This document shows, piece by piece, positions 15,457 through 56,771 of a DNA stretch of 64,000 nucleotides. The position numbers and the translations under genes were made by a program. The first letter of the stretch is position 1. The number at the start of each line of letters is the position of its first letter. The notes under the pieces were generated by a model. The model was not told where the DNA came from, made no database searches, and saw only the letters and a list, made by a program, of their open reading frames with translations. This stretch comes from Betaproteobacteria bacterium. Lineage in GTDB: Bacteria > Pseudomonadota > Gammaproteobacteria > Burkholderiales > Burkholderiaceae_E. The stretch is taken from positions 17,083 to 81,082 of the forward strand of contig JAYVKZ010000324.1 in NCBI GenBank assembly GCA_043767985.1. The letters run 5' to 3'.

Positions 15457-15494
15457 CGTTCTCTAATCTCCTCAGGGATTATCCACTCGCGCGA

Positions 15495-15968: not shown

Positions 15969-16056
15969 TTAGTGCCTTGGTTCGACATGCTTCGTTCGGA
16001 ACTCTTCTTTTCGGCCTACCTTCTTTACTCTTTATAGTTACCGAGGCTTGACCCGT

Positions 16057-17031: not shown

Positions 17032-17044
17032 GAGAAGGGTCGTC

Positions 17045-24935: not shown

Positions 24936-24946
24936 ACGAGCTCTCC

Positions 24947-28822: not shown

Positions 28823-28823
28823 G

Positions 28824-39957: not shown

Positions 39958-40737
39958 TTAGGCGTAAACCTGCAATTGTGCCAATTGTTTTTCGACAGCC
40001 TCCGTCCAACCACGATTTGCCGCTGGGCTGGCTGGGCTTGGATGAAGAATTTGAGCGACCTTGGGCAGGCGTTTGATCAGGCGCGGCGCGTCGGCGTGGG
40101 CAAGAGCATGCTCAATACGCTTCATGGCGTAAGCGCCAATCCCAATCGCCCATTCCGGTTGCAACGCGGCCAAGGCTAGCCGAAGGTGTTGATCGCAGGC
40201 CGCTTGCAAGGCCTTCATCGCCGGGGCAGGCAGCTTATCTGGCGTAAAGTTTCTGCCCCCCGCCTCAAGAAACACTAAGGGGCAATAGTTGAGTACAAAG
40301 TGATCTTCAAAGAATCGCTCGGCCGTGCCAAAGCGCTGTGCAGCCCAACCCCATAAGCGGCGCCCACTGACTTCGGACCGTGTGCAGGCGAAGCCTTGAA
40401 TCGGACGCTTCGGATGCTCCTGTTTGGGCTTTGCAACCGGCATCTCAATACCCATCCAGTCGCGAACAGCGGCCACCTCACCAAAAGGAACACCGATCTG
40501 CATCATGCCGTAGGGTCCGGGGTTCATACCGAGCAACACCACTCTACGCCGACCGCTCCCAAAGCGACGAATATAAACTTCATGCGGTGCCCAGGCATAA
40601 TCGAGTGGATCGTAGACATGGGTCACGCTGAGTTCGGGGGCAGTAAAGAGACCGGAATCAGTCAATACCTTGAGCTGCTTGCTCAACGCACTTGCAGCGG
40701 CGAGCAGAGAGTTGTCGACACGGGCAGGTAGGGCCAT
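39958..40737 (-). CDS. Family 3 (SMUG1-type) uracil-DNA glycosylase
   Basis: GMNPGPYGMMQIGVPFG and HPSPASPAANRGW match the two SMUG1 signature motifs (GMNPGPxGMxQTGVPFG and HPSPRNPxANxGW). Confidence 0.8.
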   Translation of the reverse strand: MALPARVDNSLLAAASALSKQLKVLTDSGLFTAPELSVTHVYDPLDYAWAPHEVYIRRFGSGRRRVVLLGMNPGPYGMMQIGVPFGEVAAVRDWMGIEMPVAKPKQEHPKRPIQGFACTRSEVSGRRLWGWAAQRFGTAERFFEDHFVLNYCPLVFLEAGGRNFTPDKLPAPAMKALQAACDQHLRLALAALQPEWAIGIGAYAMKRIEHALAHADAPRLIKRLPKVAQILHPSPASPAANRGWTEAVEKQLAQLQVYA

Positions 40738-40844: not shown

Positions 40845-41831
40845 CTACCTTGCAGAGCGATAGTGAAGGGACCCTTGGGTGTCCTCACGCAGGCCGCTCC
40901 ACCATTGAAGGCCTCTTCGCGCCCAATTAGCGAACGTCGTTAACCAGATCAACGGCCTACGACCTAAGGAGCTAAAACGCGCCTCGCGAATGGCCGCGTT
41001 CACATGGGTCAGCTCGACCTGATTAGCGTCGCTGCTGTAAGCGGAAAGAATCGCTTTCTCGGCCAGAATGTTGACTCGCCGGGCGATACCGCCAGAGGCC
41101 TTGGCGAGTGCAAGGACGGATTGGCGCGTAAATAAGTCTGGGCGCCCGCCTGCTTTTTTGGATCGAAACGCTAAGTAGTGACTCACCTCTTCAAGCGAAA
41201 GTGGGCCCAGGTGAAAACGTTCGGTGATCCGCTCACGTAGCGGTCTTAATCGACTACCCGCGAGAGTCCGGTTCAGTTCGTCTTGACCGACCAGCATGAT
41301 TCGCATCAGCTTAGAACGCTTGGTTTCCAGGTTGGACAACAGGCGTATTTCCTCGAGGGTTTCGGCCGACATAACATGGGCTTCGTCAATCAGTAAAAGC
41401 ACCTTAATGCCCTTACTATGAAGATCGATCAAGCGCCTTTGCAGATTCTTAATCACTTGGGCTGATCGCATTGATTCAAGGTTTCGCATCCTCAGCTCGC
41501 TGGCGATCATCAGTAGCATTTCGTCGCGCATGACCGAAGGGTTGGCAACATAGACCACTTCAAGATGTCTTGGCTTACGGTCGATCAACATGCGGGACAG
41601 CATGGTCTTACCCGTGCCCACTTCGCCTGTCACCGTGATGACCCCTTCGGCGTGTAGGCAGGCGTACTCAAGCCCCTCGAGCATGGCACCACGATCTGCT
41701 CCGTCAAAAAAAGTGTCGGTATTGGGTGTGAGAGGGAAGGGCACTTCCCGAAAGTGAAAATGCTCCAGATAAACCGCCTCTCGACGGGCGACTTCCCGCC
41801 TGCCCACGGCTTGCTTGCTGAGTCTACTCAT
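40845..41831 (-). CDS. mshM: ExeA/GspA/MshM-family AAA+ ATPase
   Basis: YLEHFHFREVPF, Walker A GEVGTGKT and Walker B LLLIDEAH. There is no C-terminal peptidoglycan-binding domain, which is MshM-like. ATGA overlap with the upstream ABC ATPase gene. Confidence 0.82.
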   Translation of the reverse strand: MSRLSKQAVGRREVARREAVYLEHFHFREVPFPLTPNTDTFFDGADRGAMLEGLEYACLHAEGVITVTGEVGTGKTMLSRMLIDRKPRHLEVVYVANPSVMRDEMLLMIASELRMRNLESMRSAQVIKNLQRRLIDLHSKGIKVLLLIDEAHVMSAETLEEIRLLSNLETKRSKLMRIMLVGQDELNRTLAGSRLRPLRERITERFHLGPLSLEEVSHYLAFRSKKAGGRPDLFTRQSVLALAKASGGIARRVNILAEKAILSAYSSDANQVELTHVNAAIREARFSSLGRRPLIWLTTFANWARRGLQWWSGLREDTQGSLHYRSAR

Positions 41832-42583
41832 GCGTGCTCCAAGGTCTCGATACTATGAATAAATGCTTCTTCGAGGCTTGCTCCAGAAAAGCGCTGACGT
41901 AGGGTGACAGGCGTGCCGCAAAAGATCAGCGCCCCGTTGTGGATAAGCGCCATGCGGTCACAGAGCGCTTCGATATCCAGCATCGAATGGGACGTGAAGA
42001 CGATGGTTCGGCCCTGAGCCTTGGCCTGCTTCAAAGCTGTGATAAAAAAACGCCTTGCCAGGGGATCCAGACCGCTCATCGGCTCATCCAATACGACTAA
42101 CGGTGCCTGCAAGATCAGGCAGGCCATCAGCCCGATCTTCTGCGTCATACCTTTTGAAAAGAACTTAAGGGGGCGATGCATCGCCTGGGGATCAATTGCA
42201 AAATCCGCAAAGCCCTGGCGGCTTGCCGCTTCACTCCAAGTTTGGCCTCGAAGACCCGCCAGCCAAACCAGTGTTTCATGCCCCGTGAGGTATCCAGGAG
42301 GCACAAAGCGCTCAGGAAGAAAAGCTAGGGGCGTGCGGGCGCTGGCCAGCGTGCTAGCCACGCCAAAGATGTCGACGCAGCCACTCGTTACTTTCATAAA
42401 ATCAAGTAGGCAGCGTAACAACGTGGTCTTACCCGCACCATTGACGCCAGCAATGGCCAGCGTTTCACCAGCCCGAACCTCGAGGCAGACGTCGTCAAGA
42501 ATTGTCTTCTGGTCGATGCACTTGGTGACATGGCTAAATCGAATCGCCAGGGCGTCACGCGGAGTTGTAAATGAATTGTTCAT
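41828..42583 (-). CDS. ABC transporter ATP-binding protein
   Basis: Walker A GVNGAGKTT, signature-like FSKGMTQK, Walker B LVVLDEPMSGLD and H-loop FTSHS. Confidence 0.88.
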   Translation of the reverse strand: MNNSFTTPRDALAIRFSHVTKCIDQKTILDDVCLEVRAGETLAIAGVNGAGKTTLLRCLLDFMKVTSGCVDIFGVASTLASARTPLAFLPERFVPPGYLTGHETLVWLAGLRGQTWSEAASRQGFADFAIDPQAMHRPLKFFSKGMTQKIGLMACLILQAPLVVLDEPMSGLDPLARRFFITALKQAKAQGRTIVFTSHSMLDIEALCDRMALIHNGALIFCGTPVTLRQRFSGASLEEAFIHSIETLEHA

Positions 42584-42682
42584 GGAGCCCGATCATAGAG
42601 GGCTAGTGCAAGGTAGTAAGCAAGAAAAGCACCGAATTATCTGGCTTATTCGAGCCTTTAGATCTTACGGATCGTTCGACAA

Positions 42683-44662
42683 TTGGGCCCAACGTTTGAA
42701 AACTGTTTGGAGCCACCCAGCGTGTATCACTTCCCAAGAACAAAGTTGCTAGTACAACCCCTGCTGCTGACGATGCTGGCAGGTTGCGTTGGAAAACCCA
42801 TTTCGCCCTCCTCTCAACATCTTGGCCGTCAGGCTTTAGGGGATCGCTCCGCGCTCCTAAAGGAGCGATCACCCCAAGTTCAAGACGATATTCCCGCCCC
42901 GCTCAGCAGCGCGATTGAAACGCCGCGCCCTCGCCTCGGTCCGAAGCTCGAAACGTACTCGGTGGTGGTGAGTCAGGTCGAAATCTCAGAACTACTTTTT
43001 GCGATGGCGCGCGATGCCAAGCTGAACGTCGATGTGCATCCGCTGGTGCAGGGCAAGGTCACGATCAACGCGATCAACCAGACCTTACCGGCCATTCTGA
43101 ATCGTCTCGCGAGGCAGGTGGATCTGCACTATGAATTTGATGGTAAGAATCTTGTGGTGATGCCCGATGTTGCATTTTCCCGGCACTACGCCATTGACTA
43201 CGTCAATATGACCCGCGAGTCGCGCTCCAGCACCAGTATTGCGACTCAGATTGCTTCGACAGGTAGAGACGCCCTGAGTTCCAGCGGCGGCTCCGGTGGA
43301 TCGCAGGCAAGCAATAACTCCACAACCCAGATCACCAATACGTCCAGTAACCGTTTCTGGGAGACCTTGGTGTCCAATTTGCGGGTCTTAATTCATGACA
43401 GCGCAACGTCGAACCCAAGCGCTGCATCATCGAGCCAAACTCCCGGTCAAACTCCCGGTCAAACCTCTGGACAAGGCTCGAGTAGCCCGTCGGGTGGTGG
43501 CACACCGCCAAGCACTCCCAGCATCACAGGCCCCGGTAGTAGCGGCACCACGGGCTCGGCGTCAGCGGCGGCCTCGAACGTCAGTGCAAGTCCCGAAACT
43601 GGCTTCATCACAGTGAAGGCGACCCATCGACAACACCTTAGGGTGCGCGATTATCTCGACAAGATTATGGGGTCTGCGCGTCGTCAAGTCATGATTGAGG
43701 CAACCATTGCAGAAGTGCAATTGTCGGACCAATATCAGCAAGGCATTAATTGGTCGCGCATGAGTTTGGACGGTTCAGGCTTTGCCTTCCAAATGCAACC
43801 CCAGGGTACAGGCCCCTTGGTCAGCGGGGCGGTGCCCGGCACAGGCCCAGGAGGGGTCACTTTCCCAGGGGTGCCAGGAGTGACGAACCTCCCCGGTGGA
43901 GCCAATCTCAGTCAGGGGCAAAGCACCAGTCTGGGGGTGTTTCGATATTTGAACAGTACGTCCTCGCTGGGTAATATCGGTGCTGCGGTGTCCTTGCTGC
44001 AATCGTTTGGCAAAGTGAAAGTGCTGTCCAGCCCCAAGATTAGCGTACTGAACAATCAGACGGCTGTATTGAAGGTGGTTGATAACAAAGTCTATTTCAC
44101 AATCGGTGTGCAAATCACGCCAGGGACTGCGACCACCGCAGCACTGGTCACCTATACCTCCACACCCAACACCGTGCCGGTGGGCTTCGTCATGTCGGTG
44201 ACGGCTCAGATTGAAGACGGTGGCAATGTCACGATTAATGTTCGGCCCACCATCTCTCGCATTATCGGCTATGTGACCGATCCCAATCCCGCACTAGCGC
44301 AAAGCAATGTGACGAGTCGCATTCCAGAGATTCAAACCCGCGAGCTGGAATCCATCCTCAAGGTTAGCAGCGGTGACATCGCGGTCATGGGCGGGCTGAT
44401 GCAGGAGTCTATCGACGAGCGTCAAGACAATATTCCAGGCGCATCGAGTCTCCCGTTCTTTGGGAACTTTTTCAAATATCGAAACGAAACTGCCGTGAAA
44501 AGCGAACTCGTTATTTTTTTGCGACCGATTGTGGTCAAGGAAGCCAGTATCGAAGGGGACTATCGCGGTTTCCGTGACTCCCTTCCTGGCCCTGATTTTT
44601 TCGGTAAGCCGGAGGGAGCAAACCCACTACGAACTTGGACACAAAGCGAGGCAACACGATGA
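42683..44662 (+). CDS. mshL: Lipoprotein secretin of a type IV filament system (MshL/PilQ-like)
   Basis: Lipobox LLTMLAGC. Secretin C-domain VKVLSSPKISVLNNQTAVLKV...IPEIQTRELESILKVSSGDIAVMGGL...IPGASSLPFFGNFF...ELVIFLRP. A likelier start is GTG at 42722 (GGAG upstream). Confidence 0.88.
   Translation: MGPTFENCLEPPSVYHFPRTKLLVQPLLLTMLAGCVGKPISPSSQHLGRQALGDRSALLKERSPQVQDDIPAPLSSAIETPRPRLGPKLETYSVVVSQVEISELLFAMARDAKLNVDVHPLVQGKVTINAINQTLPAILNRLARQVDLHYEFDGKNLVVMPDVAFSRHYAIDYVNMTRESRSSTSIATQIASTGRDALSSSGGSGGSQASNNSTTQITNTSSNRFWETLVSNLRVLIHDSATSNPSAASSSQTPGQTPGQTSGQGSSSPSGGGTPPSTPSITGPGSSGTTGSASAAASNVSASPETGFITVKATHRQHLRVRDYLDKIMGSARRQVMIEATIAEVQLSDQYQQGINWSRMSLDGSGFAFQMQPQGTGPLVSGAVPGTGPGGVTFPGVPGVTNLPGGANLSQGQSTSLGVFRYLNSTSSLGNIGAAVSLLQSFGKVKVLSSPKISVLNNQTAVLKVVDNKVYFTIGVQITPGTATTAALVTYTSTPNTVPVGFVMSVTAQIEDGGNVTINVRPTISRIIGYVTDPNPALAQSNVTSRIPEIQTRELESILKVSSGDIAVMGGLMQESIDERQDNIPGASSLPFFGNFFKYRNETAVKSELVIFLRPIVVKEASIEGDYRGFRDSLPGPDFFGKPEGANPLRTWTQSEATR
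43434..43469 (+). repeat. 12-bp in-frame tandem repeat (CAAACTCCCGGT x2 plus a degenerate third) encoding QTPG-QTPG-QTSG within the secretin
   Basis: Read directly. It is embedded in a ~70-aa Ser/Gly/Thr/Pro low-complexity insert. Confidence 0.85.
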
Positions 44663-46296
44663 GCCTATTGATCAAGGCCTTGAAGAAGGCAGAACAGAGA
44701 CATCAAGAGGCTACCGCTCAGGCCATAGAAATGGTTGCGACAGATCCTAGCTTTCAGGCGGGTCCAGCGCCCCAGGCCAAGGTGTCTCAAGCCACGGCTT
44801 CGAAAGCAGAACTCTCTCTACAAGCGGACCCGCCCGCGCAGGAAGTAATCTCATCAAAGCTAGAGACGCCCGGGCTGGCGGAGCTCATCAGTATCGAAGA
44901 GAAGTACATCACACTGGCGCAAGCTCACGCTGAGCAGCCTGCGACGAATACCTCAGCACAAGAGAGCACTGCGAAGGCTATGACCCCGGCCTTGCCCGCT
45001 ACTGAACCCCTCGTAACCAAGCCGGTTCAGTTGAAGCACGATGAGGCGATCGCGAAAGCCACCGAAGCTCCCGCAGAGCGGGCGAGTTCCGTCAAAACCT
45101 CGCCGACGCCCATGAATCGAGAACCAGGTCCACCGCCACGTCGTCCAATATCGGCCTGGCTGAAGCTAGGAAGTGCGACTGCGCTCGCAGTTGTCGCTTG
45201 CGCAGCCTATCTAGCCTGGCAAATGCGGGCACCGACCACAAGCTTGCAAGGCTCGGTTCCTCAAGGCTCATTGTCCTCGGCCACCTTGCCGGCTCCCCCT
45301 TCGGGACAGTCTGTTGCCGCCAAGCCGGCAGCGGTTACCGAGAAAGAGACCAAGCCTGGCGTTGAACCTTTGCTTGCACCTCCAGTGAAGAGCAGACGCG
45401 TGTCGAATCAAGCAGGCTCTGAACAAGCGCTGTCAAGCGCCGGCCAGTCGCACATTGACGCCTTAATTTCAAAAGTCGGTCCACATATTGAGACAACACG
45501 TTCTCGCGGAACCCCTCTCAACTCACCCAAAGCGGATACCGTCGACGGGCCCTCAAGTTCTGATGTCAAGACTAGCCCGACTAACCTGTCCCGAGCGCAG
45601 GCGACGAACGCCCTCGCCCCGTTAGCCACTCCCAAGTCGAGCCCCCGCTTAATTCGCAACGAGGCAGCGGACCGGGTAAGTCTTTTGCTAGAACAAGCCT
45701 TCTCGGCCGTGGGTCGACAAGATCGGCGCACTGCTCGTCAGCTTTATGAGCAAGCGCTCGAGATCGAGCGCACTAATACTGATGCATTGGTCGCACTAGC
45801 GTCTTTGTCCGCGCGAGAGGGTGATAGCAACGCCGCCGAAAGGCTGTACGCTCGGGTCCTCGATCTTGACCCAAGCGATTCTGCCGCTCGCGCAGGGCTC
45901 GCGAGTTTGCGTGTGGCGGCCGATCCCACTGGGCAAGAGTCGCAACTGCGTCACCTTCTGGCTGGCAACTCGGTACAACCCTCTTTGCAGTTTGCGCTCG
46001 GCAATAGTTTGGCAGCGCAATCGCGTTGGAATGAGGCTCAACAGGCCTACTTTCTCGCTTCGAGCGGCGACGCTCTTCACCCTGATTACGCCTTCAACCT
46101 AGCCATTAGCCTGGAAAGGCTGCATCAAACCAATCTTGCACTGGTTCACTACCGACGGGCGCTCGAGCTCTCCAAGAATCGCCCAGGTCGATTCTCGGCA
46201 GATCAAGCGCAAAGCCGCATCCACACACTCGAATTGCGACTCTCTCCTCAGACGACGAGTAGTGGTACGCCAGACGCTATTCTCACTAAGGACTGA
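44659..46296 (+). CDS. Bitopic TPR protein (GspB-like N-terminus, TM, Pro/Ala/Ser-rich linker, C-terminal TPRs; MshN-like position)
   Basis: MSLLIKALKKAEQRHQE N-terminus, TM segment LGSATALAVVACAAYLAW and C-terminal TPR-like repeats (ARQLYEQALEIERTNTDALVALA...AERLYARVLDLDPSD...). ATGA overlap with the secretin stop codon. Confidence 0.65.
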   Translation: MSLLIKALKKAEQRHQEATAQAIEMVATDPSFQAGPAPQAKVSQATASKAELSLQADPPAQEVISSKLETPGLAELISIEEKYITLAQAHAEQPATNTSAQESTAKAMTPALPATEPLVTKPVQLKHDEAIAKATEAPAERASSVKTSPTPMNREPGPPPRRPISAWLKLGSATALAVVACAAYLAWQMRAPTTSLQGSVPQGSLSSATLPAPPSGQSVAAKPAAVTEKETKPGVEPLLAPPVKSRRVSNQAGSEQALSSAGQSHIDALISKVGPHIETTRSRGTPLNSPKADTVDGPSSSDVKTSPTNLSRAQATNALAPLATPKSSPRLIRNEAADRVSLLLEQAFSAVGRQDRRTARQLYEQALEIERTNTDALVALASLSAREGDSNAAERLYARVLDLDPSDSAARAGLASLRVAADPTGQESQLRHLLAGNSVQPSLQFALGNSLAAQSRWNEAQQAYFLASSGDALHPDYAFNLAISLERLHQTNLALVHYRRALELSKNRPGRFSADQAQSRIHTLELRLSPQTTSSGTPDAILTKD

Positions 46297-46300
46297 ATCG

Positions 46301-48097
46301 ATGTCTGCTGTGCTTGAGCCAAGCCTTACGGCACCCACCCCCAAACCCGGGGCGAATGCTTCCGGTAAACGCCGACCGCTGGGTCAGTCTCTGATCGAAC
46401 GCGGCTTACTCACTGACGACCAGCTACGCATCGCCTTGATGGAGCAAAAAGCTCAAGGTATCCCCCTCGGTAAGGTCTTGGTCAGCATGGGGTTTCTGAC
46501 CGAGGCGACGCTGCGCGAGATGCTGGCAGAGAATCTTGGACACCGGGAAATTGATCTGTCTCGTCTCGTCCCCAATCCGACGGCAATGCGTCTTGTGACT
46601 CGGGATTTTGCAAAACGCCATCTCGTCTTTCCAGTGAGCGTGGACGACGAGGAAGGCATATTGACCCTGGCCTTATCGAACCCGAACGATGTTATGGCGC
46701 TCGATAAGATCAGCGCCGATCTTGAGGGACGCTACAAACTTGTGGTGTGTATTGCCACCGAGGGAGAAGTCTCCGGAGCGATTGATCTTCATTATGGCCA
46801 TGAGCTATCGATTGACGGCATCCTGAATGAGATTGAGACGGGCGAGCTAGATTTGGGCAGCCTTGACACGGGCGGAAACGAATACAGCGGCCCGGTCATA
46901 CGGTTGATCGACGCGATTTTGACCGATGCGATCCAACGCCGCACCAGTGACATTCACTTCGAACCTGAGGCAGGCTTCGTTCGCATTCGCTACCGGGTGG
47001 ACGGCGTGTTACGACAGATTCGCGCCCTCCACGCGAAGTTTTGGCCGTCCATGGCGGTGCGCCTGAAGATCGTAGCGGGGATGAACATTGCCGAAACCCG
47101 TGCACCTCAGGACGGACGAATTTCCTTGCTTGTGAATGGTCGACCAATTGATTTTCGAGCAGCGGCACATCCAACCATTCACGGCGAAAATTTTGTACTA
47201 CGAATTTTGGATCGTAACAGTGGCATGGTCGCTCTAGAAAAGATGGATCTGCTCGATGCCCAGATCGACGCCATTGAGATGATGATTGCCCGACCCGAAG
47301 GAATGGTCTTGGTGACGGGACCCACCGGCAGCGGCAAAACGACCACCTTGTACTCGATTCTCGCCCGGCTGAACAAAGAGGGCGTCAACATCATGACACT
47401 CGAGGACCCGGTGGAGTATCCCTTGCCAATGGTGCGTCAAAGCAACCTCGCCTCCAGTACCAAGCTTGATTTTTCGGGCGGCATCCGTTCGCTTATGCGT
47501 CAGGACCCCGACATCATTCTGGTCGGTGAGATCCGCGACGCTGACACCGCGACCCAGGCCCTGCGCGCCGCGATGACCGGTCATTTAGTGTTTTCTACAT
47601 TACACACAAACTCCGCGATTGGCGCGATTCCCCGCCTACAAGACCTCGGTCTCACCGCCGAATTGATGGCAGGCGCGCTCATTGGTGTGGTAGGCCAGAG
47701 ATTAGTCAGAAAGCTCTGTACGCATTGCAAAAAGCCAATGGAGATCGACCGAGAGACAGCGCTCGCGCTTCACATGCCCGAAGACAAGCCTGCCGTGCTC
47801 TTCCAGTCCGAGGGCTGTGTTCACTGTGATTATCAGGGCTACAAGGGACGACTGGGCTTACTTGAAGTGTTGCGCTTCGATGAGGAGCTTGACGACCTTG
47901 TTGCTCGCAGGACACCCTTGCGAGAGATTCTTAGAGCAGCGCGAAAAAAAGGCTTCACCACGCTTGCCGATGATGCGTTACGCCGAGTGATCGCCGGCCA
48001 GACCTCGCTTGAAGAAGCGGCTCGGGTGGTCGACCTCACCAACATCAGCTCCTTGGTTCGCGAGGGATCCAATGAGACCACGGCGAGCCCAGCATGA
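46301..48097 (+). CDS. mshE: GspE/PilB-family extension ATPase with MshEN-type N-terminal domain (MshE-like)
   Basis: Tandem MshEN motifs at aa 26-78, Walker A GPTGSGKTTT, Asp/His boxes and the tetracysteine CTHCK...CVHCDYQGYKGR. The ORF extension from 46136 overlaps the upstream gene. Confidence 0.92.
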   Translation: MSAVLEPSLTAPTPKPGANASGKRRPLGQSLIERGLLTDDQLRIALMEQKAQGIPLGKVLVSMGFLTEATLREMLAENLGHREIDLSRLVPNPTAMRLVTRDFAKRHLVFPVSVDDEEGILTLALSNPNDVMALDKISADLEGRYKLVVCIATEGEVSGAIDLHYGHELSIDGILNEIETGELDLGSLDTGGNEYSGPVIRLIDAILTDAIQRRTSDIHFEPEAGFVRIRYRVDGVLRQIRALHAKFWPSMAVRLKIVAGMNIAETRAPQDGRISLLVNGRPIDFRAAAHPTIHGENFVLRILDRNSGMVALEKMDLLDAQIDAIEMMIARPEGMVLVTGPTGSGKTTTLYSILARLNKEGVNIMTLEDPVEYPLPMVRQSNLASSTKLDFSGGIRSLMRQDPDIILVGEIRDADTATQALRAAMTGHLVFSTLHTNSAIGAIPRLQDLGLTAELMAGALIGVVGQRLVRKLCTHCKKPMEIDRETALALHMPEDKPAVLFQSEGCVHCDYQGYKGRLGLLEVLRFDEELDDLVARRTPLREILRAARKKGFTTLADDALRRVIAGQTSLEEAARVVDLTNISSLVREGSNETTASPA

Positions 48098-49299: not shown

Positions 49300-51182
49300 T
49301 GGCTCACACCACTCATTTTCTTTATCTGAGCGCGGCTGGACTTGTTTGTCTGAGTGACGAAGGACGAGGCCTAACTCAAGGCCCTTCGTTTGAGGCCAAC
49401 TTTGAGCTCGACGATCAAGGTCATTCGATACACCATGCGCTATCCCAGTGGCTCATTGAGCACCGACGCAACACCTTTGCCTTGATCGTCGATGTGAGCG
49501 AAGAGGAGTTCGCGATCGAACAGGTCCCAACCCTCGGGAGAAACGACCAGCTCGCAGTCATTCGGCGTAGGCTATCTCAAAAATTTCGAGAGGCCAGGCT
49601 ACAGCAATGGACAGTCTTAAAACAATCCACCGGCAAGTTCTTTTCACGCACAAAAGACACTGATCGTCAGGTTCGGGTCCTGATGAGTGGGGTGGCTCGG
49701 GACAGTGTGATCTATTCGTGGCTACACACGCTCGAACAAAGCAAGATCGCCGTTCGAAGTGTGGTGAGCCCTGCGCTACTCGCGCACCGGTTGATGCTTA
49801 AACAGCTAAAAGGTACGAGTGCGATGATGGTTTCATGGAGCCCTGCGGGCTTGAGACAAACCGTCATTCTTAAGGGAGAGGTTCGCTTCACGCGGCTCGC
49901 TGCGCAACTGCCGTCTGTCGGGATTGCCGCAGTGCAAACAGAATGCCTTCGGACCATCCAGTATTTGCTCATGTCACAGCAAGTCAGTCGTGACGATCTG
50001 CGCACCATTGGGCTACCGATCTGGATTCTCGAGGGGGGTATTGCAGGGCTCGATCATGCACCCGAACGGCTTGCGGTAGACACCTCCGTCGAGCTTCCCT
50101 TGGGCGTCATTCCAGCGATCGCGTCGCTGACGCAGGCCAGCGCCGCGCTAGGTTCGCTAGCTTCGTGGTGTGCGACTGAAAGCTTTCCGTTGGTGCCGGG
50201 CAGCCTACGCCGTGGTTACGCGAGCGAGGCACTTTTGCGAGGCTATCGGGTTCGTCTGTTTGAGCTTTGGTTCTTTCGAACGGGGGCGACAGCCCTTGGC
50301 TGCGCCTTGATTGGTCTCGTCGCAAGCCTCTGTCTCAACGCACTTTGGCCAGCAGACTCCCAAGCGCTTCTACTCAAGACCCAAAAGGCGCTCGCGGCCA
50401 AGGACAAGTTAAAGGTTGAATTGGCCCGGTTCACCCTACCGGGTCCTGAAATGCAGTCTGTTGTCGAGATTGCACACGGCCTTCGTAAGCGACATGTTGA
50501 CGCCTATGCTTTGATGCAAACGCTGTCTGCTGCCGTAGACGCAGAGCAGAACATCGATCTCCATGTGCTTCGTTGGCGACGGCTCGAACCTGCTCAGAGC
50601 ACACAGTGGGCGACCTTTGATTTCACGGGCAAAGGCGAACAAAGCGGTGACGGTACACGCTCTAAAGGCGGCTCGAATCCTTTGTCCCAAGCGCTCTCGA
50701 GCGGGGGGGCGACCCCCTTGGGTTCTGCAGCTTTAGGGTCTGCATCTTTAGGATCGAAATCTTTAGGGTCCGGGACATTCGGCTCCGCGCCGCTAGGCGC
50801 TACGCTGTCGATGCCGACGCCCGGCTCACCTGGCCTTGCAGGCATGTCAGGCCAGCAAGGTCTCGCGAGTCTTGGCCCGGTGGTACTCGAGCTAAAGGGA
50901 TCGCTAAACGGTCAACCCATCATGCAGGAGGCTAACAAGCAAGCTAGACAGTTTGCGCAGCGTATTCGCGATTACTGTCATTGCGAAGTCATTGTGAGCA
51001 CCCTGCCTTTCGATCCCGAAGCCAGCCTTGGGTTTAGCAAGTCGTTCGAAGCGCGTACCGAGAGCGATAAGCAGCCCGCAAGCTTTACGATTCGCGCCCT
51101 GTTTCCCGAGACACCCGATATTTCACAGGTGGTTCAGCGACCTAAATCGGCTCCAACAGAGAAAACTGGGGGGCAAGGGTAG
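49299..51182 (+). CDS. Hypothetical bitopic protein; possibly a fused GspL/PilM-like cytoplasmic domain plus PilN/GspM-like periplasmic domain (MshI position)
   Basis: Coding status is supported by the TAATG junction and operon context. There is a single TM segment (ATALGCALIGLVASLCLNALW) at about aa 330. The functional assignment is from architecture only. Confidence 0.55.
   Translation: MAHTTHFLYLSAAGLVCLSDEGRGLTQGPSFEANFELDDQGHSIHHALSQWLIEHRRNTFALIVDVSEEEFAIEQVPTLGRNDQLAVIRRRLSQKFREARLQQWTVLKQSTGKFFSRTKDTDRQVRVLMSGVARDSVIYSWLHTLEQSKIAVRSVVSPALLAHRLMLKQLKGTSAMMVSWSPAGLRQTVILKGEVRFTRLAAQLPSVGIAAVQTECLRTIQYLLMSQQVSRDDLRTIGLPIWILEGGIAGLDHAPERLAVDTSVELPLGVIPAIASLTQASAALGSLASWCATESFPLVPGSLRRGYASEALLRGYRVRLFELWFFRTGATALGCALIGLVASLCLNALWPADSQALLLKTQKALAAKDKLKVELARFTLPGPEMQSVVEIAHGLRKRHVDAYALMQTLSAAVDAEQNIDLHVLRWRRLEPAQSTQWATFDFTGKGEQSGDGTRSKGGSNPLSQALSSGGATPLGSAALGSASLGSKSLGSGTFGSAPLGATLSMPTPGSPGLAGMSGQQGLASLGPVVLELKGSLNGQPIMQEANKQARQFAQRIRDYCHCEVIVSTLPFDPEASLGFSKSFEARTESDKQPASFTIRALFPETPDISQVVQRPKSAPTEKTGGQG
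50715..50804 (+). repeat. Six in-frame 15-bp tandem units encoding x-L-G-S-x pentapeptides
   Basis: Read directly: PLGSA ALGSA SLGSK SLGSG TFGSA PLGAT. A G7 homopolymer lies at 50703-50709. Confidence 0.85.
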
Positions 51183-51184
51183 CT

Positions 51185-51844
51185 ATGAAAATTTCCAAGT
51201 CGCTCCGATCATTGGCAAAAGACCTACGTCGCTCGATTCTTAAGCTTTTGATCATGGTCTGCTGCGCTACAACGTTATTTGTAGTCGCAATCTCGCAGTA
51301 TCGCGCGCTCTTAAAGGCTCACGACGTCGAGCAATTGAATCTTTCAGCCGTCGAAGCTTCAGTGACTCAACTTCGAGGTGAACTGGACAGCGCTCAGAAG
51401 TTTATCGAGCCCTTTGATGCTTTAAAAGGGAGCGGCGTCTTGAGTCCGTTTGGAAAGCAGAACTCACTCGATCAAGTGGATCGCCTCATGCAAATCGGCT
51501 GGGTGGTACCGAAGTCTTACGCCTTGGCTGCTCAAGCACCTCTTGAAGGTACGCTTGCGACCAAACTTGCTCAACATGTGCCTTTCAAACATAGCCTGAA
51601 GTTTGAAGTGAGTCTACCTCACGAGCTACGACTGCTCCGCTTAATCGATGCGCTCGCTTCAAAGTCATTCTCAGGTCTATCAACGGTGGAATCCTGTGAC
51701 ATGGAACGAAAATCCTCGCACCAGAAGTCTGGCGAGGTGCAAGACCGGGCCTTGACGGCCACATGTACTTTGAACTGGTATCACTTTGTAAGCAAGGCCG
51801 AGACCGTACCAGCCCTAGCAATGACACTAGGAGAGCGTCCTTGA
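51185..51844 (+). CDS. Hypothetical bitopic protein, PilO/GspM/MshJ-like by architecture
   Basis: Basic N-terminus, one TM segment (ILKLLIMVCCATTLFVVAI), coiled-coil stretch and a ~110-aa C-terminal domain. There is a 2-nt gap from the upstream gene. Confidence 0.5.
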   Translation: MKISKSLRSLAKDLRRSILKLLIMVCCATTLFVVAISQYRALLKAHDVEQLNLSAVEASVTQLRGELDSAQKFIEPFDALKGSGVLSPFGKQNSLDQVDRLMQIGWVVPKSYALAAQAPLEGTLATKLAQHVPFKHSLKFEVSLPHELRLLRLIDALASKSFSGLSTVESCDMERKSSHQKSGEVQDRALTATCTLNWYHFVSKAETVPALAMTLGERP

Positions 51845-52188
51845 CTACAGTCACTTGGATAGGATTAGCACGGCGCGCGGTCTTGGTTTACCTTGCGCTG
51901 ATTTCTTCGGTGTCGCATAGTCAAAGTGCGCCTGCACAAAAGCACTATGAACTCGGGCGCCTATTCATGGACCCCGTTCAGCGCGCGCAGATTGACCAGC
52001 CGAGTAAGGCCGTCGCGTCGGGCAGCAACGATGTCGCGCAAATTAATGGCGTCGTGCAACGTAGTGCGGGCCCAACCGTCGTTTGGATCGATGGTGTACC
52101 ACGCCAAGACTGGCCGATCTACGCCAAGCGCTGGGTCAATGGCAAGGCTGAGAACAGACCGAGCGGTCAAGTCAAGGATTCGCCATGA
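51841..52188 (+). CDS. Small exported protein (MshK/PilP-like position)
   Basis: The TTG start overlaps the upstream stop codon (TTGA). Signal peptide AVLVYLALISSVSHS. The INGVVQRSAGPTVVWIDGV motif resembles PilP/MshK cores. The ORF is open from 51763. Confidence 0.45.
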   Translation: MTTVTWIGLARRAVLVYLALISSVSHSQSAPAQKHYELGRLFMDPVQRAQIDQPSKAVASGSNDVAQINGVVQRSAGPTVVWIDGVPRQDWPIYAKRWVNGKAENRPSGQVKDSP

Positions 52189-53642
52189 GAGCCGGTATCA
52201 GAAGGGTTCGTCATTGCAGAGGCGTACTTCGGCAACAGGGCATCGTTTTTTATCTGGTCATCGTCGCGATGGCGGTGTCAATGTCACTGCTCACCTTGGC
52301 CCTGACCGGTATGACTTCGCTCAAAGACTTGCGCGCAGACCAAGCCGATAGAATTTTGCTTGATGCCCGTCGTAGCGTACTGAGCTATCTGGTCAATGTG
52401 GATATTGATCCTTCGGGCCGTCGGCTAGGTGAGTGGCGCTTGTTTGCAGATCTTCCCATCGCCGCGTCCGCTGGCCTCGATGCGACTGAGCCCAACTATG
52501 ACGGAACCGCTGAGATCGCGGGCTGCGCAACACGCACCTGGGCGGTGGGTCAAGCACTCACACCCGTGAGCACTAGCGGTCCAGCAGCACGCTGCTTTGG
52601 TCGACTTCCTTGGCGCTCATTGGGCTTGTCGATTCCAGATGCTGGTGATGATCCCGATGCCTATGTGCCCTGGATTATCGTCTCCCCGAACTTGGCGACC
52701 GTGAGCGCCTGCCAACCGAATTTGCATCCCTCCGCTCTCGGTCAGGCCTATGTCGGCTATCTCTGCCTGGGTGCGATGCCCTATCCGTGGATTAACGTGC
52801 GAGATGAACGAGGCAATCTCATTTCTGATCGCGTAGCGGTTGCCTTGATTCTCCCTGGTAGCCCTTTGCAAGGACAAACCCGCGGTCCGGGGGCGGGACC
52901 CGCCGCCTACCTTGATCGCGTCACGGTCACAGCAGCGTGCCCGGCCCCCTGCCAGCCGGGGACCTACAATAACGCTGATTATGCGCATGCCGACAATCTT
53001 CCCACGACGCTGATTCAAGCCAACGCTGACGCCTCGGCCAGCGAGCGCAAAGGCTTCTATGCCGCGCCCTATTTATTTAACGACCGAGTGGTGTACATCA
53101 CCATTGACGAACTGATGTCCAGGCTCGAGAATCGCGCCCGAATCGAGGTCAAGCGTCGTCTCGAGGCCTTCAAAAGTGCGCGTGGCTACTACCCTAATGC
53201 GGCCGATCTCACTTCCGCGACGGGTCAATGCAATAGCAGTCAGCGTTTCGGTCGCCTGCCGATCGTTCAGGGTAGTTGTCAGGCCGGTGACATTCTGAGC
53301 CTGCCCGCTTGGTTCACGGACGCAGGTTGGCATCGTTACTTCCTTTACTCGGTCTCTGCGCGGTGCAACTTTGGCAATATCGCTTGCACTGCGCCTGGCC
53401 TCACGGTGGGCAGTAACAATGCCGTCAATGCCCTATTGCTAGCGCCGGGCCTGCCTGTGACGAGCCCGCCTTATGTGGTTGCTCGCGCCAATGCACAAGT
53501 CCCGCTCACCGGACAAATCTTGTCTGCTAATCCGGCTGATTACCTCGACTCCATTGAAAACGCTGGAGGTGCCGCGGATGTGTTCGACGCAACTGCGCTA
53601 CAACCCTACCCCAACAATGATCGCCTGGAGACCCTCAATTGA
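52185..53642 (+). CDS. Large pilin-like/GspK-like protein with a non-canonical N-terminal hydrophobic segment
   Basis: QQGIVFYLVIVAMAVSMSLLTLAL has Gly then a hydrophobic helix but no Glu+5. Cys-rich. It carries CFGRLPWRSLGL and FGRLPIVQGSC motifs, shared with the next pilin. ATGA overlap with the upstream gene. Confidence 0.5.
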   Translation: MRAGIRRVRHCRGVLRQQGIVFYLVIVAMAVSMSLLTLALTGMTSLKDLRADQADRILLDARRSVLSYLVNVDIDPSGRRLGEWRLFADLPIAASAGLDATEPNYDGTAEIAGCATRTWAVGQALTPVSTSGPAARCFGRLPWRSLGLSIPDAGDDPDAYVPWIIVSPNLATVSACQPNLHPSALGQAYVGYLCLGAMPYPWINVRDERGNLISDRVAVALILPGSPLQGQTRGPGAGPAAYLDRVTVTAACPAPCQPGTYNNADYAHADNLPTTLIQANADASASERKGFYAAPYLFNDRVVYITIDELMSRLENRARIEVKRRLEAFKSARGYYPNAADLTSATGQCNSSQRFGRLPIVQGSCQAGDILSLPAWFTDAGWHRYFLYSVSARCNFGNIACTAPGLTVGSNNAVNALLLAPGLPVTSPPYVVARANAQVPLTGQILSANPADYLDSIENAGGAADVFDATALQPYPNNDRLETLN

Positions 53643-54442
53643 AACAACGCGGATTTTCTCTCATCGAAATTGCCATCGGACTCATGATCATTGGGCTGAT
53701 CGCCGCCAGCATGATTGCTAGTGTGACCCAACAAAACGAACAACGTCGTATCGCCGAAACCAAGATAACGTTGAGCCTAGCGCGTGACGCCGTCATGGCC
53801 TTTATCACAGGGCAGGGCCGCCTACCTTGCCCAGCGACTGCCGCAAGCAATGGCCAAGAGGCAATCGCAAGCAATCTCGCCGGTGTCGTGAGCTGCACGC
53901 TAGAGGCGGGCTTCTTGCCTGCGGTCACGCTCGGCCTACCAGGCATTGACCCACAGGGTTTCCTGAATAATGCTTGGGCCGACGGCGCAACGGGCGGAGG
54001 GTCTTTCCCGCGAGCGCTTCGCTACGCTGTGAGCAACTTGGCGGCGCCTGTCGCCAATGCTTTGACCTCGCCAGGACTCGGTGCCCCCACCAGTGCCACC
54101 CGCCGCGCCGATGTGCAAGCGGCCATGACAGCGGGGGCCGGACTTTTTGTGTGCGCAAGCGCGAGTGGGCTGAGCGCAGGCGCGAACCGTTGTGGTTCAA
54201 CGGCCAACCTTTTGAGCAATAACGCTGCCGCGATGATTTGGACGCTTGCCGCCAACGGTAACGATATCCCAAGCTATTCGGCAGACGAGCAACAAAACGC
54301 GAACCTTGTGGTGGCACGAGTACTCATCAGCCGAGGGTTTGCACCGAGTGGCGCCATTGGAGGTCGATTTGACGATTTGGTGACCTGGATTCCCGCATCA
54401 CTCGTGATGGACCGACTATTGACCAGTGGAGCTGTGCAATGA
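53639..54442 (+). CDS. Prepilin-type minor pilin (N-terminal cleavage/methylation motif)
   Basis: (M)KQRG|FSLIEIAIGLMIIGLIAA has Gly-1, Phe+1 and Glu+5. The TTG start overlaps the upstream stop codon (TTGA). Confidence 0.8.
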   Translation: MKQRGFSLIEIAIGLMIIGLIAASMIASVTQQNEQRRIAETKITLSLARDAVMAFITGQGRLPCPATAASNGQEAIASNLAGVVSCTLEAGFLPAVTLGLPGIDPQGFLNNAWADGATGGGSFPRALRYAVSNLAAPVANALTSPGLGAPTSATRRADVQAAMTAGAGLFVCASASGLSAGANRCGSTANLLSNNAAAMIWTLAANGNDIPSYSADEQQNANLVVARVLISRGFAPSGAIGGRFDDLVTWIPASLVMDRLLTSGAVQ

Positions 54443-55212
54443 CTATCGCATTTTGGACAATCGTGCGGTTTACCTTGGTCGAAATGCTGAGAAATCGCAG
54501 CGTTTGGCTCTGTCTCGGGGGTGCCTTGGCAGTCGCTTCGGTCGCGGCCTTCGCAGGGGCCTTGGCCCTCACCGAGCACCAAGAGATTGCGATCAATACC
54601 CTCGCCCCACTCACTCGACTGTGCTGTATCGCGATGGTCGCTATGCTGAGCACAACATCGCTAGTTCGGGACCTGCAAGAGAGAACTTGCTTACTCATGC
54701 TGGCCGCGCCCATGTCACGCTGCTCGTGGCTGTTAGGAAAGTGGGCGGGTCTGGCCTTAGCCGCTGCCGTGAGCGCCGTTTTGTTCGCGATTCCGATCCT
54801 AGTTTTGCAAACCAACTTGGGTGGGCTGATATGGACAATGTCGCTAGTCCTCGAAGCTGTTCTCGTGACGGCTCTCGTCGTCGCCGCTGCCCTAAGTTTT
54901 AAGCAGGTGCCCGCCACTCTTTTTGCGACGGCGAGCTTTTACTTGGCGGCCCGTGTCATTGGCTTAGCCAAGCTTTTGAATGATCGTGCGCCCTTAGAAC
55001 TCACTGGTGTACAAACCATGGGTAATACGATCATTGATGGTCTGGCCTTGCTCTTACCAAGACTTGATCTTGTGACCTCAACGACTTGGTTATCATCATC
55101 CGCACCCATGTTCAGTGATCTTGCCCTCGTCGCTGGCCAGGTGGCGCTGTACTGCTCCCTGGCGTTGAGCGCTGCGTCCATCGACTTCACGCGCAAGGAT
55201 CTAACGTCATGA
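54439..55212 (+). CDS. ABC-2-family transporter permease
   Basis: Six predicted TM segments. N-terminal FWTIVRFTLVEMLRNRSVW and DLQERTCLLMLAAPMSRCSWLLGKWAG match the ABC-2 pattern E-x-G-T-x-E-x-L-x-x-x-P-x-S-R-x-x-x-x-x-G-K. ATGA overlaps on both sides. Confidence 0.7.
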   Translation: MTIAFWTIVRFTLVEMLRNRSVWLCLGGALAVASVAAFAGALALTEHQEIAINTLAPLTRLCCIAMVAMLSTTSLVRDLQERTCLLMLAAPMSRCSWLLGKWAGLALAAAVSAVLFAIPILVLQTNLGGLIWTMSLVLEAVLVTALVVAAALSFKQVPATLFATASFYLAARVIGLAKLLNDRAPLELTGVQTMGNTIIDGLALLLPRLDLVTSTTWLSSSAPMFSDLALVAGQVALYCSLALSAASIDFTRKDLTS

Positions 55213-55979
55213 ATGAGGTCGTCCTTGGGGGCGCTTTGCGCAGTGCACTTTCTCGACAGTGGCGCAAGCTCAAAGGTGCCCCCAATACGGCCAGGGCTCC
55301 CCGCTGGGGATGGCCCTTACTGGCCACTTGTTTGATCTTGCAGGCCTCGCTGTCGTGGGTGGTCCCGCGCACCTGGCAAGCTGACACCCGTTTGGGTGCC
55401 GTCCCCAGTGCACCGAGTATCAAGCTCTGGAGTTTGGGTGAGCCGATCATGGCGAGCTATGCCATGAGCCTCTATGTACAAACCTTCGACAGTCAAGCCG
55501 GCCAAAGTCTGGGCCTTCGTACACTCGATCAGGTGGCTTTGCGGGCCTGGTTGAACCGCAGCGTTGATTTGAATCCTCAAGGCTCATACCCCCTGTTGTT
55601 GGCGACTCGAATCTATGCCTCGGCGAGCCGAGCAAGGGACGCGCGCGACATGTTGGACCTTGTACATCAGCGCTTCCTCGAAGCGCCAGACCGGCGTTGG
55701 CCTTGGCTGGCCCATGCCGTTCACGTCGCGCGCCACGAACTGCACGATCTTGAACTGGCCAAACACTACGCTAGAAGCTTAGCCCAGCACACCAGGGATG
55801 AGAAAGTGCCTTCCTGGGCGCGTCAGTTAGAGATCTTTTTGCTCGAAGCCGGTAACGAAACGGAGGCTGCTCGGCGGCTGCTCGGGGCGCTACTGGCGAG
55901 CGGGCAAATTAAGAGCGACGCGGAATTTCGATTTTTGGCCGAACGCCTGAAACAGATTCCCGATGATGGGCCGCGCTGA
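55209..55979 (+). CDS. Hypothetical membrane-anchored helical-repeat protein
   Basis: One TM segment (WGWPLLATCLILQASLSWVV) followed by an alpha-helical, TPR-like region. Translationally coupled to the ABC-2 permease. I recognise no family. Confidence 0.5.
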   Translation: MNEVVLGGALRSALSRQWRKLKGAPNTARAPRWGWPLLATCLILQASLSWVVPRTWQADTRLGAVPSAPSIKLWSLGEPIMASYAMSLYVQTFDSQAGQSLGLRTLDQVALRAWLNRSVDLNPQGSYPLLLATRIYASASRARDARDMLDLVHQRFLEAPDRRWPWLAHAVHVARHELHDLELAKHYARSLAQHTRDEKVPSWARQLEIFLLEAGNETEAARRLLGALLASGQIKSDAEFRFLAERLKQIPDDGPR

Positions 55980-56091
55980 GTTGATCAGCGGCACTAATGA
56001 TTTAGATTTTTTGGCCGAAATGAATTCTATTGGCTAGATAGGTAAACGGTCGATGTACAGCACGGATTCGTCAACATTAGGAGTTTTGGAA

Positions 56092-56715
56092 ATGAGAAAA
56101 CAAATGCAACAAGGCTTTACGTTAGTAGAAATTGCTATCGTCTTAGTCATCGTAGGTCTGCTCTTGGGAGGTGTTCTCAAGGGTCAAGAATTGATCTTCA
56201 ACTCGAAGATCAAGGCGACCTTCAATTTAAGTAAGGAACTATCGGCGGCGATCAATGGGTATCAGGACAGATATAAAGCGCTCCCTGGCGACGACGCCAA
56301 TGCTCTTGTGCGCTTTCCTGCCGTGATTCCGGCTGTTACAAATGGTAACGGCGATGGCCTGATGTGGTGGGGCGGCGATTGTAGCCTCGGTCAGCGCACG
56401 GGTGAGAATTGCACAGCCTTGCATCACATGCGCGCTGCCGGTTTTCTTTCCGGTACCGGCGCCGAAGGAGCTCCCGCACCCTTCGGTGGTACGGCCTCCC
56501 CCGCAGCCGCAATGATCTTCATGCCTAACGCTGGCGCCAGCCCCGTGCTGGGGTTATCGCCAACCGGTATGACGCACAAAATTGCGAGTGCTATTGATAC
56601 CTCGTTCGATGACGGCCTTTCGACGACGGGTACAGTTCGCTGCCGCAACCTCGCCGCCTACAACATGGCGACTCCCGATACGCAATTGCCAGACTGGTGC
56701 TCCATCCAAATGTAG
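56092..56715 (+). CDS. Type IV (pseudo)pilin, probable major subunit
   Basis: MRKQMQQG|FTLVEIAIVLVIVGLLLGGVLKGQELI has Gly-1, Phe+1 and Glu+5. C-terminal Cys pair (VRC...DWC). AGGAG Shine-Dalgarno 8 nt upstream. Followed by a terminator. The ORF is open from 56053. Confidence 0.85.
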   Translation: MRKQMQQGFTLVEIAIVLVIVGLLLGGVLKGQELIFNSKIKATFNLSKELSAAINGYQDRYKALPGDDANALVRFPAVIPAVTNGNGDGLMWWGGDCSLGQRTGENCTALHHMRAAGFLSGTGAEGAPAPFGGTASPAAAMIFMPNAGASPVLGLSPTGMTHKIASAIDTSFDDGLSTTGTVRCRNLAAYNMATPDTQLPDWCSIQM

Positions 56716-56741
56716 GCCTGAACATCGAGACTTCAACCAAA

Positions 56742-56771
56742 GCGGGCGCCAAATGGCACCCGCCTTTTTTT
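56742..56771 (+). terminator. Rho-independent terminator after the pilin gene
   Basis: GCGGGCGCC-AAAT-GGCACCCGC (8 of 9 bp paired) followed by a run of seven T. Confidence 0.7.

Follow-up and report, generated by a model that had tools for sequence, protein, structure and literature searches.

A putative MSH-type pilus locus with a reorganised operon and an embedded ABC-2 exporter on a betaproteobacterial contig

Among the type IV filament machines, the mannose-sensitive haemagglutinin (MSH) systems are recognised by a mandatory set, mshA, mshE, mshG, mshL plus mshM, whose members occur in a single locus without a prepilin peptidase gene (Denise et al. 2019, PMC6668835). The E. coli K-12 type II secretion system (T2SS), with its gspAB and gspC-O genes, provides the other close point of comparison. 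For the ATP-binding cassette (ABC) module PilGHI of Myxococcus, in which an ABC ATPase and a polytopic permease are accompanied by another protein of no known family, we know of no counterpart at any other pilus locus and of no explanation of its role since 1998. In the literature, PilH is presented as an ABC transporter homologue, and PilGHI as resembling ABC transporters and being needed for pilin translocation and the biogenesis of pili (PMC3724824, citing Wu et al. 1998; PMC6060248). Here we describe a 14-gene locus within 64,000 nucleotides of a contig from a Betaproteobacteria bacterium (JAYVKZ010000324.1, positions 17,083 to 81,082; hereafter the window), which we assign, judging from its sequence and with a probability of about 70%, to the MSH branch of the type IV filaments. 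We see in it no new kind of machine but a separate variant of the MSH-type pilus, conserved and hitherto unannotated, which is distinguished by a reorganised operon, a reduced pilin set, a tip-type pilin that is an orphan in its fold, and an integrated ABC exporter.

Comparison with MSH loci and reality of the genes

The assignment is carried by the core proteins. Homologs of MshM, MshL, MshE and MshG stand together at the locus, and in BLAST comparisons with a panel of 35 reference proteins, drawn from the msh locus of an Aeromonas caviae chromosome entered among plasmids and the gsp and hof loci of E. coli K-12, the secretin, the assembly ATPase and the platform protein all scored higher with their Msh homologs than with the E. 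coli Gsp/Hof counterparts. The secretin gave 125 bits with MshL (28.5% identity, E 1e-33), 73 with GspD and 50 with HofQ; the ATPase aligned with MshE over the full length (39.3% identity, 355 bits, E 1e-118) and with GspE in its C-terminal part only (324 bits); and the platform protein gave 185 bits with MshG (31% identity, E 7e-58) and 158 with GspF. Equally telling is the AAA+ protein of the minus strand, which matched MshM alone in the panel (BLASTP, 39.5% identity over 276 aa, E 2e-56 to 3e-56), gave no BLAST match with E. coli GspA at E<1e-3, carries no C-terminal peptidoglycan-binding domain, and reached 200 bits, below the model cutoff, with TIGR03015 of NCBIfam. Among the models compared for the secretin, that of MshL (TIGR02519; 237.9 bits, cutoff 250.2) scored above those of GspD (158) and PilQ (101).

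Some further features of these proteins can be read from their translations. The longest open reading frame (ORF) of the secretin starts at 42683; however, GTG 42722 is favoured as the likely start, because a lipoprotein signal peptide ending in LAGC then results. The secretin also contains, between its N-terminal domains and its core, a Ser/Gly/Thr/Pro-rich insert of low complexity (~100 residues, residues ~180-300, positions ~43250-43620). The tetratricopeptide repeat (TPR) protein has a single transmembrane (TM) segment at residues 168-186 with the TPRs on its C-terminal side, and its N-terminal motif MSLLIKALKKAE, which is kept in relatives, resembles MSVINQMLKDLD of Aeromonas MshN; the likeness to MshN is confined to this motif and the TPRs. 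In MshEN domains, cyclic di-GMP (c-di-GMP) is bound by the tandem consensus RLGxx(L/V/I)(L/V/I)xxG(L/V/I)(L/V/I)xxxxLxxxLxxQ. Both copies are legible in the ATPase, as PLGQSLIERGLLTDDQLRIALMEQ and PLGKVLVSMGFLTEATLREMLAEN, where P stands in place of the leading R in each and, in the second, N in place of the final Q, and the c-di-GMP motif model NF053729 scored 62.3 bits (cutoff 38) over residues 81-132 of the long ORF; the ATPase is hence a predicted c-di-GMP binder.

The likeness to MSHA of Vibrio and Aeromonas thus comprises MshM-, MshL-, MshN-, MshE- and MshG-like proteins, an MshEN-type ATPase and a single locus, and it extends to what the locus does not contain, namely a prepilin peptidase and a dedicated retraction ATPase. 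The original prediction had listed the missing peptidase and PilT among the peculiarities of this DNA. Neither a prepilin peptidase (A24) nor a PilT-like gene was found among the Pfam-scanned ORFs (the locus and its flanks to 60 kb, with most upstream ORFs of at least 180 aa, other than 24498-25073 and 28094-28861, and three downstream), but this is no anomaly, because such absence is characteristic of MSH loci (PMC6668835).

In several respects the window departs from MSHA. Its order places the MshM-like and ABC ATPase genes on one strand and, facing them on the other, L-N-E-G-I-J-K-like genes followed by pilins, a permease with its partner, and the major pilin. The equivalents of I, J and K lie beyond sequence recognition, those of MshH, F, B, C, D, O and Q are missing, and there are only three pilin-like proteins; in turn, the window possesses a 485-aa pilin of unmatched fold, an embedded ABC-2 exporter and a lipoprotein secretin, and no ABC module occurs at the canonical msh locus of Aeromonas caviae. 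Aeromonas MshI, J, K, F, B, C, D, O, P and Q, whose genes, like mshN, are optional in the MSH model, found no BLAST match and no significant profile match among the locus proteins. Only the M, L, E and G equivalents matched the Aeromonas msh operon by BLAST, and neither Msh I/J/K/O/P/Q nor Gsp C/H-M found a match at normal scores. A survey of synteny recovered the same order only in unannotated contigs of metagenomes or metagenome-assembled genomes (MAGs), and literature searches brought up no account of such a locus. It follows that the order unlike that of Vibrio cholerae msh and the lack of recognisable MshH/O/P/Q, both noted earlier, stand, and that the earlier proposal of a distinct, poorly described and divergent MSHA/T2SS-like subtype is supported.

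By ORF listing, translation and domain scans, two genes lie on the minus strand and twelve on the plus strand, the latter in the order secretin, TPR protein, ATPase, platform protein, 627-, 219-, 115-, 485- and 267-aa proteins, permease, 256-aa protein and pilin (Table 1). The two divergent operons, with the ABC ATPase gene and then the ExeA-like gene joined by an ATGA overlap, were found where they had been reported. So were the ten successive overlaps or gaps of at most 4 nt on the plus strand, which direct reading of the junctions gave, in order, as ATGA, gap of 4, ATGA, TAATG, gap of 2, TTGA, ATGA, TTGA, ATGA and ATGA, and so were the ensuing 112-nt gap, in which an AGGAG ribosome-binding site precedes the 207-aa pilin gene, and the terminator. 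Pfam and NCBIfam likewise reproduced the calls of secretin, TPR protein, ATPase and platform protein, while the count of 15 proteins has to be corrected to 14. No sigma-70 or sigma-54 promoter consensus was found in the two intergenic regions, and no Rfam element, c-di-GMP riboswitches included, was found.

The ORFs are real genes and not products of chance: their order is repeated, gene for gene, in dozens of independent loci from metagenomes (at least 40, with 25-90% protein identity to the window, including orthologs of 25-60%). This census combined BLAST and iterated hidden Markov model (HMM) searches over all fetched loci; a metagenome scan with the alignment of the 485-aa family led to 74 loci, and a scan with a diverse 627-aa alignment gave no confirmed match. 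All the relatives found come from MAGs or metagenomes, and the names given are 'hypothetical protein' for nearly all of them; the organisms named among the 485-aa homologs are Burkholderiaceae, Lautropia and Gammaproteobacteria MAGs. Type IV filaments are sorted into a handful of types. We are here looking at a coherent and widely distributed environmental subtype, with ~5 kb of its operon left unannotated by the domain libraries.

A few minor observations belong here. The best NCBIfam matches of the ExeA-like and TPR proteins are both PEP-CTERM-system models (TIGR03015 and PrsT, respectively), each below its cutoff. An iterated HMM search started from the ExeA-like protein drifted to other P-loop ATPases and was discarded. 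In NZ_AP026896.1, entered as 'plasmid pKAM479_3' (4.94 Mb) and almost certainly, given its size, a mislabelled chromosome, the msh locus, a cluster of the housekeeping type, looks complete by the sizes and order of its ORFs.

Table 1. Coordinates of the genes and elements of the locus and its immediate flanks in the window, and of two SAF-domain genes at related loci
Feature	Size	Position	Strand	Evidence or remark
Fused MFS/spermidine-synthase-like protein	774 aa	37689-40013	-	NF037959
UDG-superfamily protein		39958-40737	-	
MshM/ExeA(GspA)-like AAA+ ATPase	328 aa	40845-41831	-	Pfam AAA_22 8.3e-24
ABC ATPase, ABC-2/DrrA-NodI-GldA type	251 aa	41828-42583	-	ABC_tran 4.9e-19; NCBIfam drrA subfamily 4.4e-38
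Divergent intergenic region, presumed promoters of both operons	138 bp	42584-42721		
MshL-like secretin lipoprotein	646 aa from GTG 42722	42722-44662	+	Pfam Secretin 4.8e-33
MshN/GspB-like bitopic TPR protein	545 aa, start ATG 44659	44659-46296	+	TPR Pfam matches
MshE-like assembly ATPase	598 aa	46301-48097	+	T2SSE 1.4e-123; MshEN 2e-14
GspF/MshG inner-membrane platform protein	401 aa	48094-49299	+	T2SSF 4.9e-47
GspL/MshI-like bitopic protein	627 aa	49299-51182	+	Profile, fold and architecture evidence
Bitopic protein; TM segment 18-36, a coiled coil and a periplasmic domain in which 2 Cys are conserved	219 aa	51185-51844	+	Architecture, position
Signal-peptide protein	115 aa	51841-52188	+	Motifs LGRLF..P..R and G.V.RS.G...VW.(D/N)G
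GspK/PilX-class minor pilin	485 aa	52185-53642	+	N-terminus RQQG/IVFYL, no Glu5
Prepilin-type minor pilin	267 aa	53639-54442	+	MKQRG/FSLIE; N_methyl 1.7e-5; TIGR02532
ABC-2 type permease, at least 5 hydrophobic segments	257 aa	54439-55212	+	Weak ABC2_membrane_3/2/4 Pfam matches
Permease partner; N-terminal hydrophobic segment, conserved helical domain	256 aa	55209-55979	+	
Major pilin candidate	207 aa	56092-56715	+	MRKQMQQG/FTLVE; N_methyl 6.5e-7
Intrinsic terminator		~56739-56771	+	Hairpin + U7; -24.1 kcal/mol, z = -2.5
SAF-domain (FlgA-N) protein	203 aa	56835-57446	-	Signal-peptide-like N-terminus
SAF-domain protein gene, related locus L005		13653-14276	+	
SAF-domain protein gene, related locus L089		4135-4746	-	

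The ABC module and its conservation

The most distinctive conserved feature of the subtype is an ABC module, whose genes the original prediction had correctly listed without singling the module out. The ABC ATPase, with Walker A, signature, Walker B and H-loop all legible in its translation, is encoded by the first gene of the divergent operon and is translationally coupled to the MshM-like gene, whose start its stop overlaps by 4 nt. The permease gene overlaps both of its neighbours (ATGA) and has no ATPase gene in its own operon; its ABC2_membrane_3 match amounts to 27 bits, below the cutoff, and the JGI label of its homologs is 'Cu-processing system permease' (a NosY-like COG). The 256-aa gene always follows that of the permease, and for its product no family was detected, with no match in the PDB and sporadic TPR-like matches in Pfam.

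Among 41 non-redundant related loci that extend at least 1.7 kb beyond the 267-aa gene, 33 have the order permease, 256-aa gene, pilin, with the pilin gene as the last of the cluster and with 485-aa orthologs 34-75% identical to that of the window; the other eight, which are devoid of the permease, belong to the most distant loci when judged by the 485-aa protein (no BLAST match, or 35-37% identity). A divergent homolog of the ABC ATPase adjoins the secretin gene in L001, L007, L029, L033, L042 and L054, and it is there wherever the DNA upstream of the secretin is visible: besides the window, in four loci that carry the permease and also in L007, where the contig stops short of the permease position. 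In a gammaproteobacterial MAG (L008), the ABC ATPase gene is found after the pilin gene instead. Given the conserved position, the coupling of the permease gene to both neighbours and the adjacency of the ATPase, we regard the exporter as probably belonging to the system and the two operons as working together. ATPase, permease and 256-aa partner would make up an ABC-2 exporter that is a conserved accessory of the subtype and a functional link between both operons. By analogy with Myxococcus PilGHI, the export of pilins or the biogenesis of the pilus probably depends on the module. The stronger proposal, that the exporter is a working part of the filament machine, extracting or handing over pilins or exporting a lipid- or glycan-linked factor required by the pilus, is a tentative one against which we would still wager.

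The module recalls Myxococcus PilGHI by composition, in being a three-gene module inside a type IV pilus cluster beside a pilin gene. The host system of PilGHI, however, is a type IVa pilus (T4aP) with PilT in a deltaproteobacterium, from which the system of the window differs, and in the window the ATPase gene does not adjoin that of the permease but lies on the other strand, where it is translationally coupled to the MshM-like gene. A link of the archaeal 'bindosome' type, in which a type IV filament is joined to an ABC importer, was considered and rejected, because the module is of the ABC-2 exporter type and none of its genes was recognised as coding for a solute-binding protein. What would be gained is a tie between an ABC exporter and the biogenesis of pili in a lineage other than Myxococcus. 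Should the ABC genes indeed be part of the machine, they and the fold-orphan 485-aa tip pilin would together set apart an 'ABC-assisted' class of MSH-like type IV filaments, widespread among the uncultured Burkholderiales of soil and freshwater, and they would offer a second, independent system for solving what PilGHI-type transporters do.

Pilins and putative alignment proteins

Three proteins of the locus (207, 267 and 485 aa) bear class III signals. The major pilin candidate of 207 aa has two Cys pairs, one of them C-terminal (184, 203), and resembles the Aeromonas Msh pilins in the N-terminal helix only. In the Burkholderiales pond MAG (L001) two tandem major pilin genes are present (16747-17370 and 17574-18197), whose products are 79% and 76% identical to the window pilin. 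Nearly every related locus that reaches past the 485-aa gene has the 267-aa gene directly behind it. The 485-aa protein, for its part, has at least 100 homolog clusters, most of them unnamed and every name given being 'hypothetical protein', and its best hhalign partner is the N-terminus of E. coli GspK (P=3.8e-4). Its AlphaFold2 (AF2) model is confident (pLDDT 91.6) and combines an N-terminal pilin helix of 53 residues with a globular domain in which ten Cys are conserved; for this domain Foldseek returned no match in the PDB or BFVD (best E 1.9 and 0.39, respectively). A pilin-anchored domain that is confidently modelled and has no structural relative is a candidate for a new adhesin or receptor-binding module.

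The original prediction had counted five proteins of the locus as unknowns. In Pfam (E<=10) and NCBIfam these five indeed found nothing, except for a match of the 256-aa protein to RHA1_ro05818_N at 22 bits, below the cutoff of 27, and the family profiles of the 627-, 219-, 115- and 256-aa proteins produced nothing meaningful against PDB sequences. The lack of a Pfam or NCBIfam family is therefore as described; nevertheless, the 485-aa protein is a minor pilin, and the 627-, 219- and 115-aa proteins are most likely very divergent alignment proteins of the MshI(+I1)/J/K, that is GspL/M/C, type and not the bearers of new functions.

In the 627-aa protein, a cytoplasmic actin-like domain is followed by a TM segment (331-349), a coiled coil and a periplasmic alpha/beta domain, an architecture shared with GspL, PilM+PilN and MshI+I1, and the protein is most likely GspL/MshI-like. 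In hhalign comparisons with the panel, Aeromonas MshI came out best (P=0.0018), aligned at the same residue positions through the most conserved motifs of the family, G..RFSR and E..RT.QYL. Its low-confidence AF2 model, built on a 7-sequence alignment, drew Foldseek matches to actin-like folds only, PilM among them, and hints at such a fold. A word-indexed search gave six close homologs, in the pond MAG and JGI contigs, all with the 14-gene layout; exhaustive profile search widened the family to 1275 related cluster representatives of 480-620 aa. Weak Pfam matches to GspL_C were seen in 6 of 47 diverse family members, and one member has the UniRef name 'GspL cytoplasmic actin-ATPase-like domain-containing protein'.

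The 219-aa family, present in 60 related loci, has no Pfam match, and its best hhalign partner is MshJ (P=0.005) in the TM segment only. The 115-aa family, present in 70 loci, showed weak and non-significant similarity to the homology region (HR) of GspC (P=0.039), besides one T2SSB match at E 0.01. Because no comparison was significant, we infer the roles of these two from architecture and position, which would be those of MshJ/PilO/GspM for the 219-aa protein and of MshK/PilP/GspC-HR for the 115-aa protein. The 115-aa protein of the window and its closest orthologs, in L001 and L005, are without the C-terminal 'LK.GQ' common to most family members, and this subclade therefore has a shortened version.

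Proposed mechanism, rival explanations and neighbouring genes

Taken together, the locus probably makes a c-di-GMP-activated adhesive pilus, as far as its sequence allows us to judge. From the observed gene content, domain identities, conservation and coupling we infer the following interplay of proteins, c-di-GMP control and ABC function. The MshE-like ATPase, when bound by c-di-GMP, would drive the polymerisation of pilins on the GspF/MshG platform, and the 627-, 219- and 115-aa proteins would constitute the alignment complex from the platform to the lipoprotein secretin, whose assembly in the outer membrane might be aided by the MshM-like protein together with the MshN-like one. In the filament, a polymer of the 207-aa pilin, priming and capping would fall to the 485- and 267-aa pilins; the prepilin peptidase and any retraction ATPase would be encoded elsewhere and act in trans; and the ABC-2 module may support the export of pilins or supply an exported cofactor.

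Several points weigh against placing the locus on the MSH branch and the exporter within the system. The MSH placement is drawn from best-hit patterns against few references, and the secretin falls slightly under the cutoff of the MshL model. AF2 modelled the 627-aa protein poorly (pLDDT 46), the match of this protein to MshI is marginal among 35 references, and the profile comparisons of the 219- and 115-aa proteins are all non-significant. Furthermore, 8 of the 41 related loci are without the permease and its partner, and the relatives with an identified source organism are all uncultured.

What, then, could the locus be otherwise? It could be a type II secretion system, whose pseudopilus would act as a piston secreting folded proteins without any surface pilus, and this would suit the platform protein, whose best NCBIfam model is GspF (284 bits, over 231 for PilC), as well as the GspL-like architecture, weak GspL_C matches and single GspL-type name of the 627-aa family, the Glu5-less, GspK-like N-terminus of the 485-aa pilin, the missing retraction ATPase, and the divergent ExeA/GspA-type gene facing the secretin operon in a manner reminiscent of E. 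coli gspAB and gspC-O. We consider this improbable nonetheless, since all Gsp equivalog models remained far below their cutoffs (bits/cutoff: GspD 158/351, GspE 483/630, GspF 284/424, GspG 21-24/89), models of GspC, H-K and M gave no match, and no equivalents of GspC, G, H, I, J, M or O were recognised at the locus. Moreover, the core proteins are closer to Msh than to Gsp, the ExeA-like protein has no peptidoglycan-binding part, the major pilin of 207 aa with its C-terminal Cys pair is unlike GspG, and no candidate substrate gene is conserved nearby. Membership in the T4aP class fares no better, with PilB at 497/676 and PilQ at 101/284 bits and with no Pfam match to PilM/N/O/P. At the other extreme, the locus might be a standard and already annotated MSHA operon with its genes shuffled, given that, of the five genes mandatory in TXSScan, homologs of E, G, L and M and a candidate for A stand at one locus without a peptidase; this we hold to be very unlikely indeed in view of the ten Aeromonas Msh proteins left without BLAST or significant profile match, the five proteins without Pfam or NCBIfam family, the label 'hypothetical protein' in related loci and the absence of the ABC module from the canonical msh locus examined.

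A separate doubt concerns the ABC genes, which might be passengers, an independent exporter that happens to lie within the pilus locus and plays no part in the filament. Exporters of the ABC-2 type are generic and common, the JGI label of the permease is NosY-like, eight related pilus loci do without the permease, and a histidine-kinase gene splits the permease gene from the minor pilin gene in L058 and L079. This explanation, a shade less improbable than a secretion system, is opposed by the position between minor and major pilin genes kept in 33 of 41 loci, by translational coupling on both sides, and by the ATPase gene, which stays at the locus although on the opposite strand (after the pilin in L008). 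A functional precedent also exists in PilGHI (PMC3724824). An MSH-branch pilus with its own ABC exporter is thus the reading that we prefer.

Concerning regulation, the histidine kinase gene just mentioned encodes a multi-TM protein with the H-box THDVKNLLQSL and lies on the opposite strand between the 267-aa pilin and permease genes (L079, 12659-14383 (-); L058, 12116-14002 (-)). In a variant from a Rhodocyclaceae MAG (L088), a sigma-54 response regulator gene is found upstream (905-2359 (+)), and a guanylate-cyclase-domain gene and a histidine kinase gene downstream (14546-17535). Such histidine kinase, response regulator and cyclase genes in relatives point to control by two-component or nucleotide signalling.

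As for the neighbourhood of the locus, a SAF-domain protein is encoded right after the pilin, and a related JGI contig has a homolog with 51% identity beside the locus, but turned the other way relative to the operon; in L001 the gene is not adjacent. SAF-domain proteins occur in other pilus systems (CpaB/RcpC). On the other side, immediately beyond the MshM-like gene, the 774-aa protein, a fusion related to the major facilitator superfamily (MFS) and spermidine synthase, and the protein of the uracil-DNA glycosylase (UDG) superfamily are probably unrelated to the locus; their genes are not next to it in the flanks of L001, L007 and L088. Elsewhere in the window, the scanned ORFs encode ordinary functions in metabolism and transport. 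Five genes for TctC/Bug periplasmic receptors lie within the 64 kb (5542-6516, 8463-9452, 14434-15456, 16048-17031 and 59976-61022); multiple receptors of this kind are typical of Burkholderiales, and their presence fits the taxonomy of the closest related MAGs.

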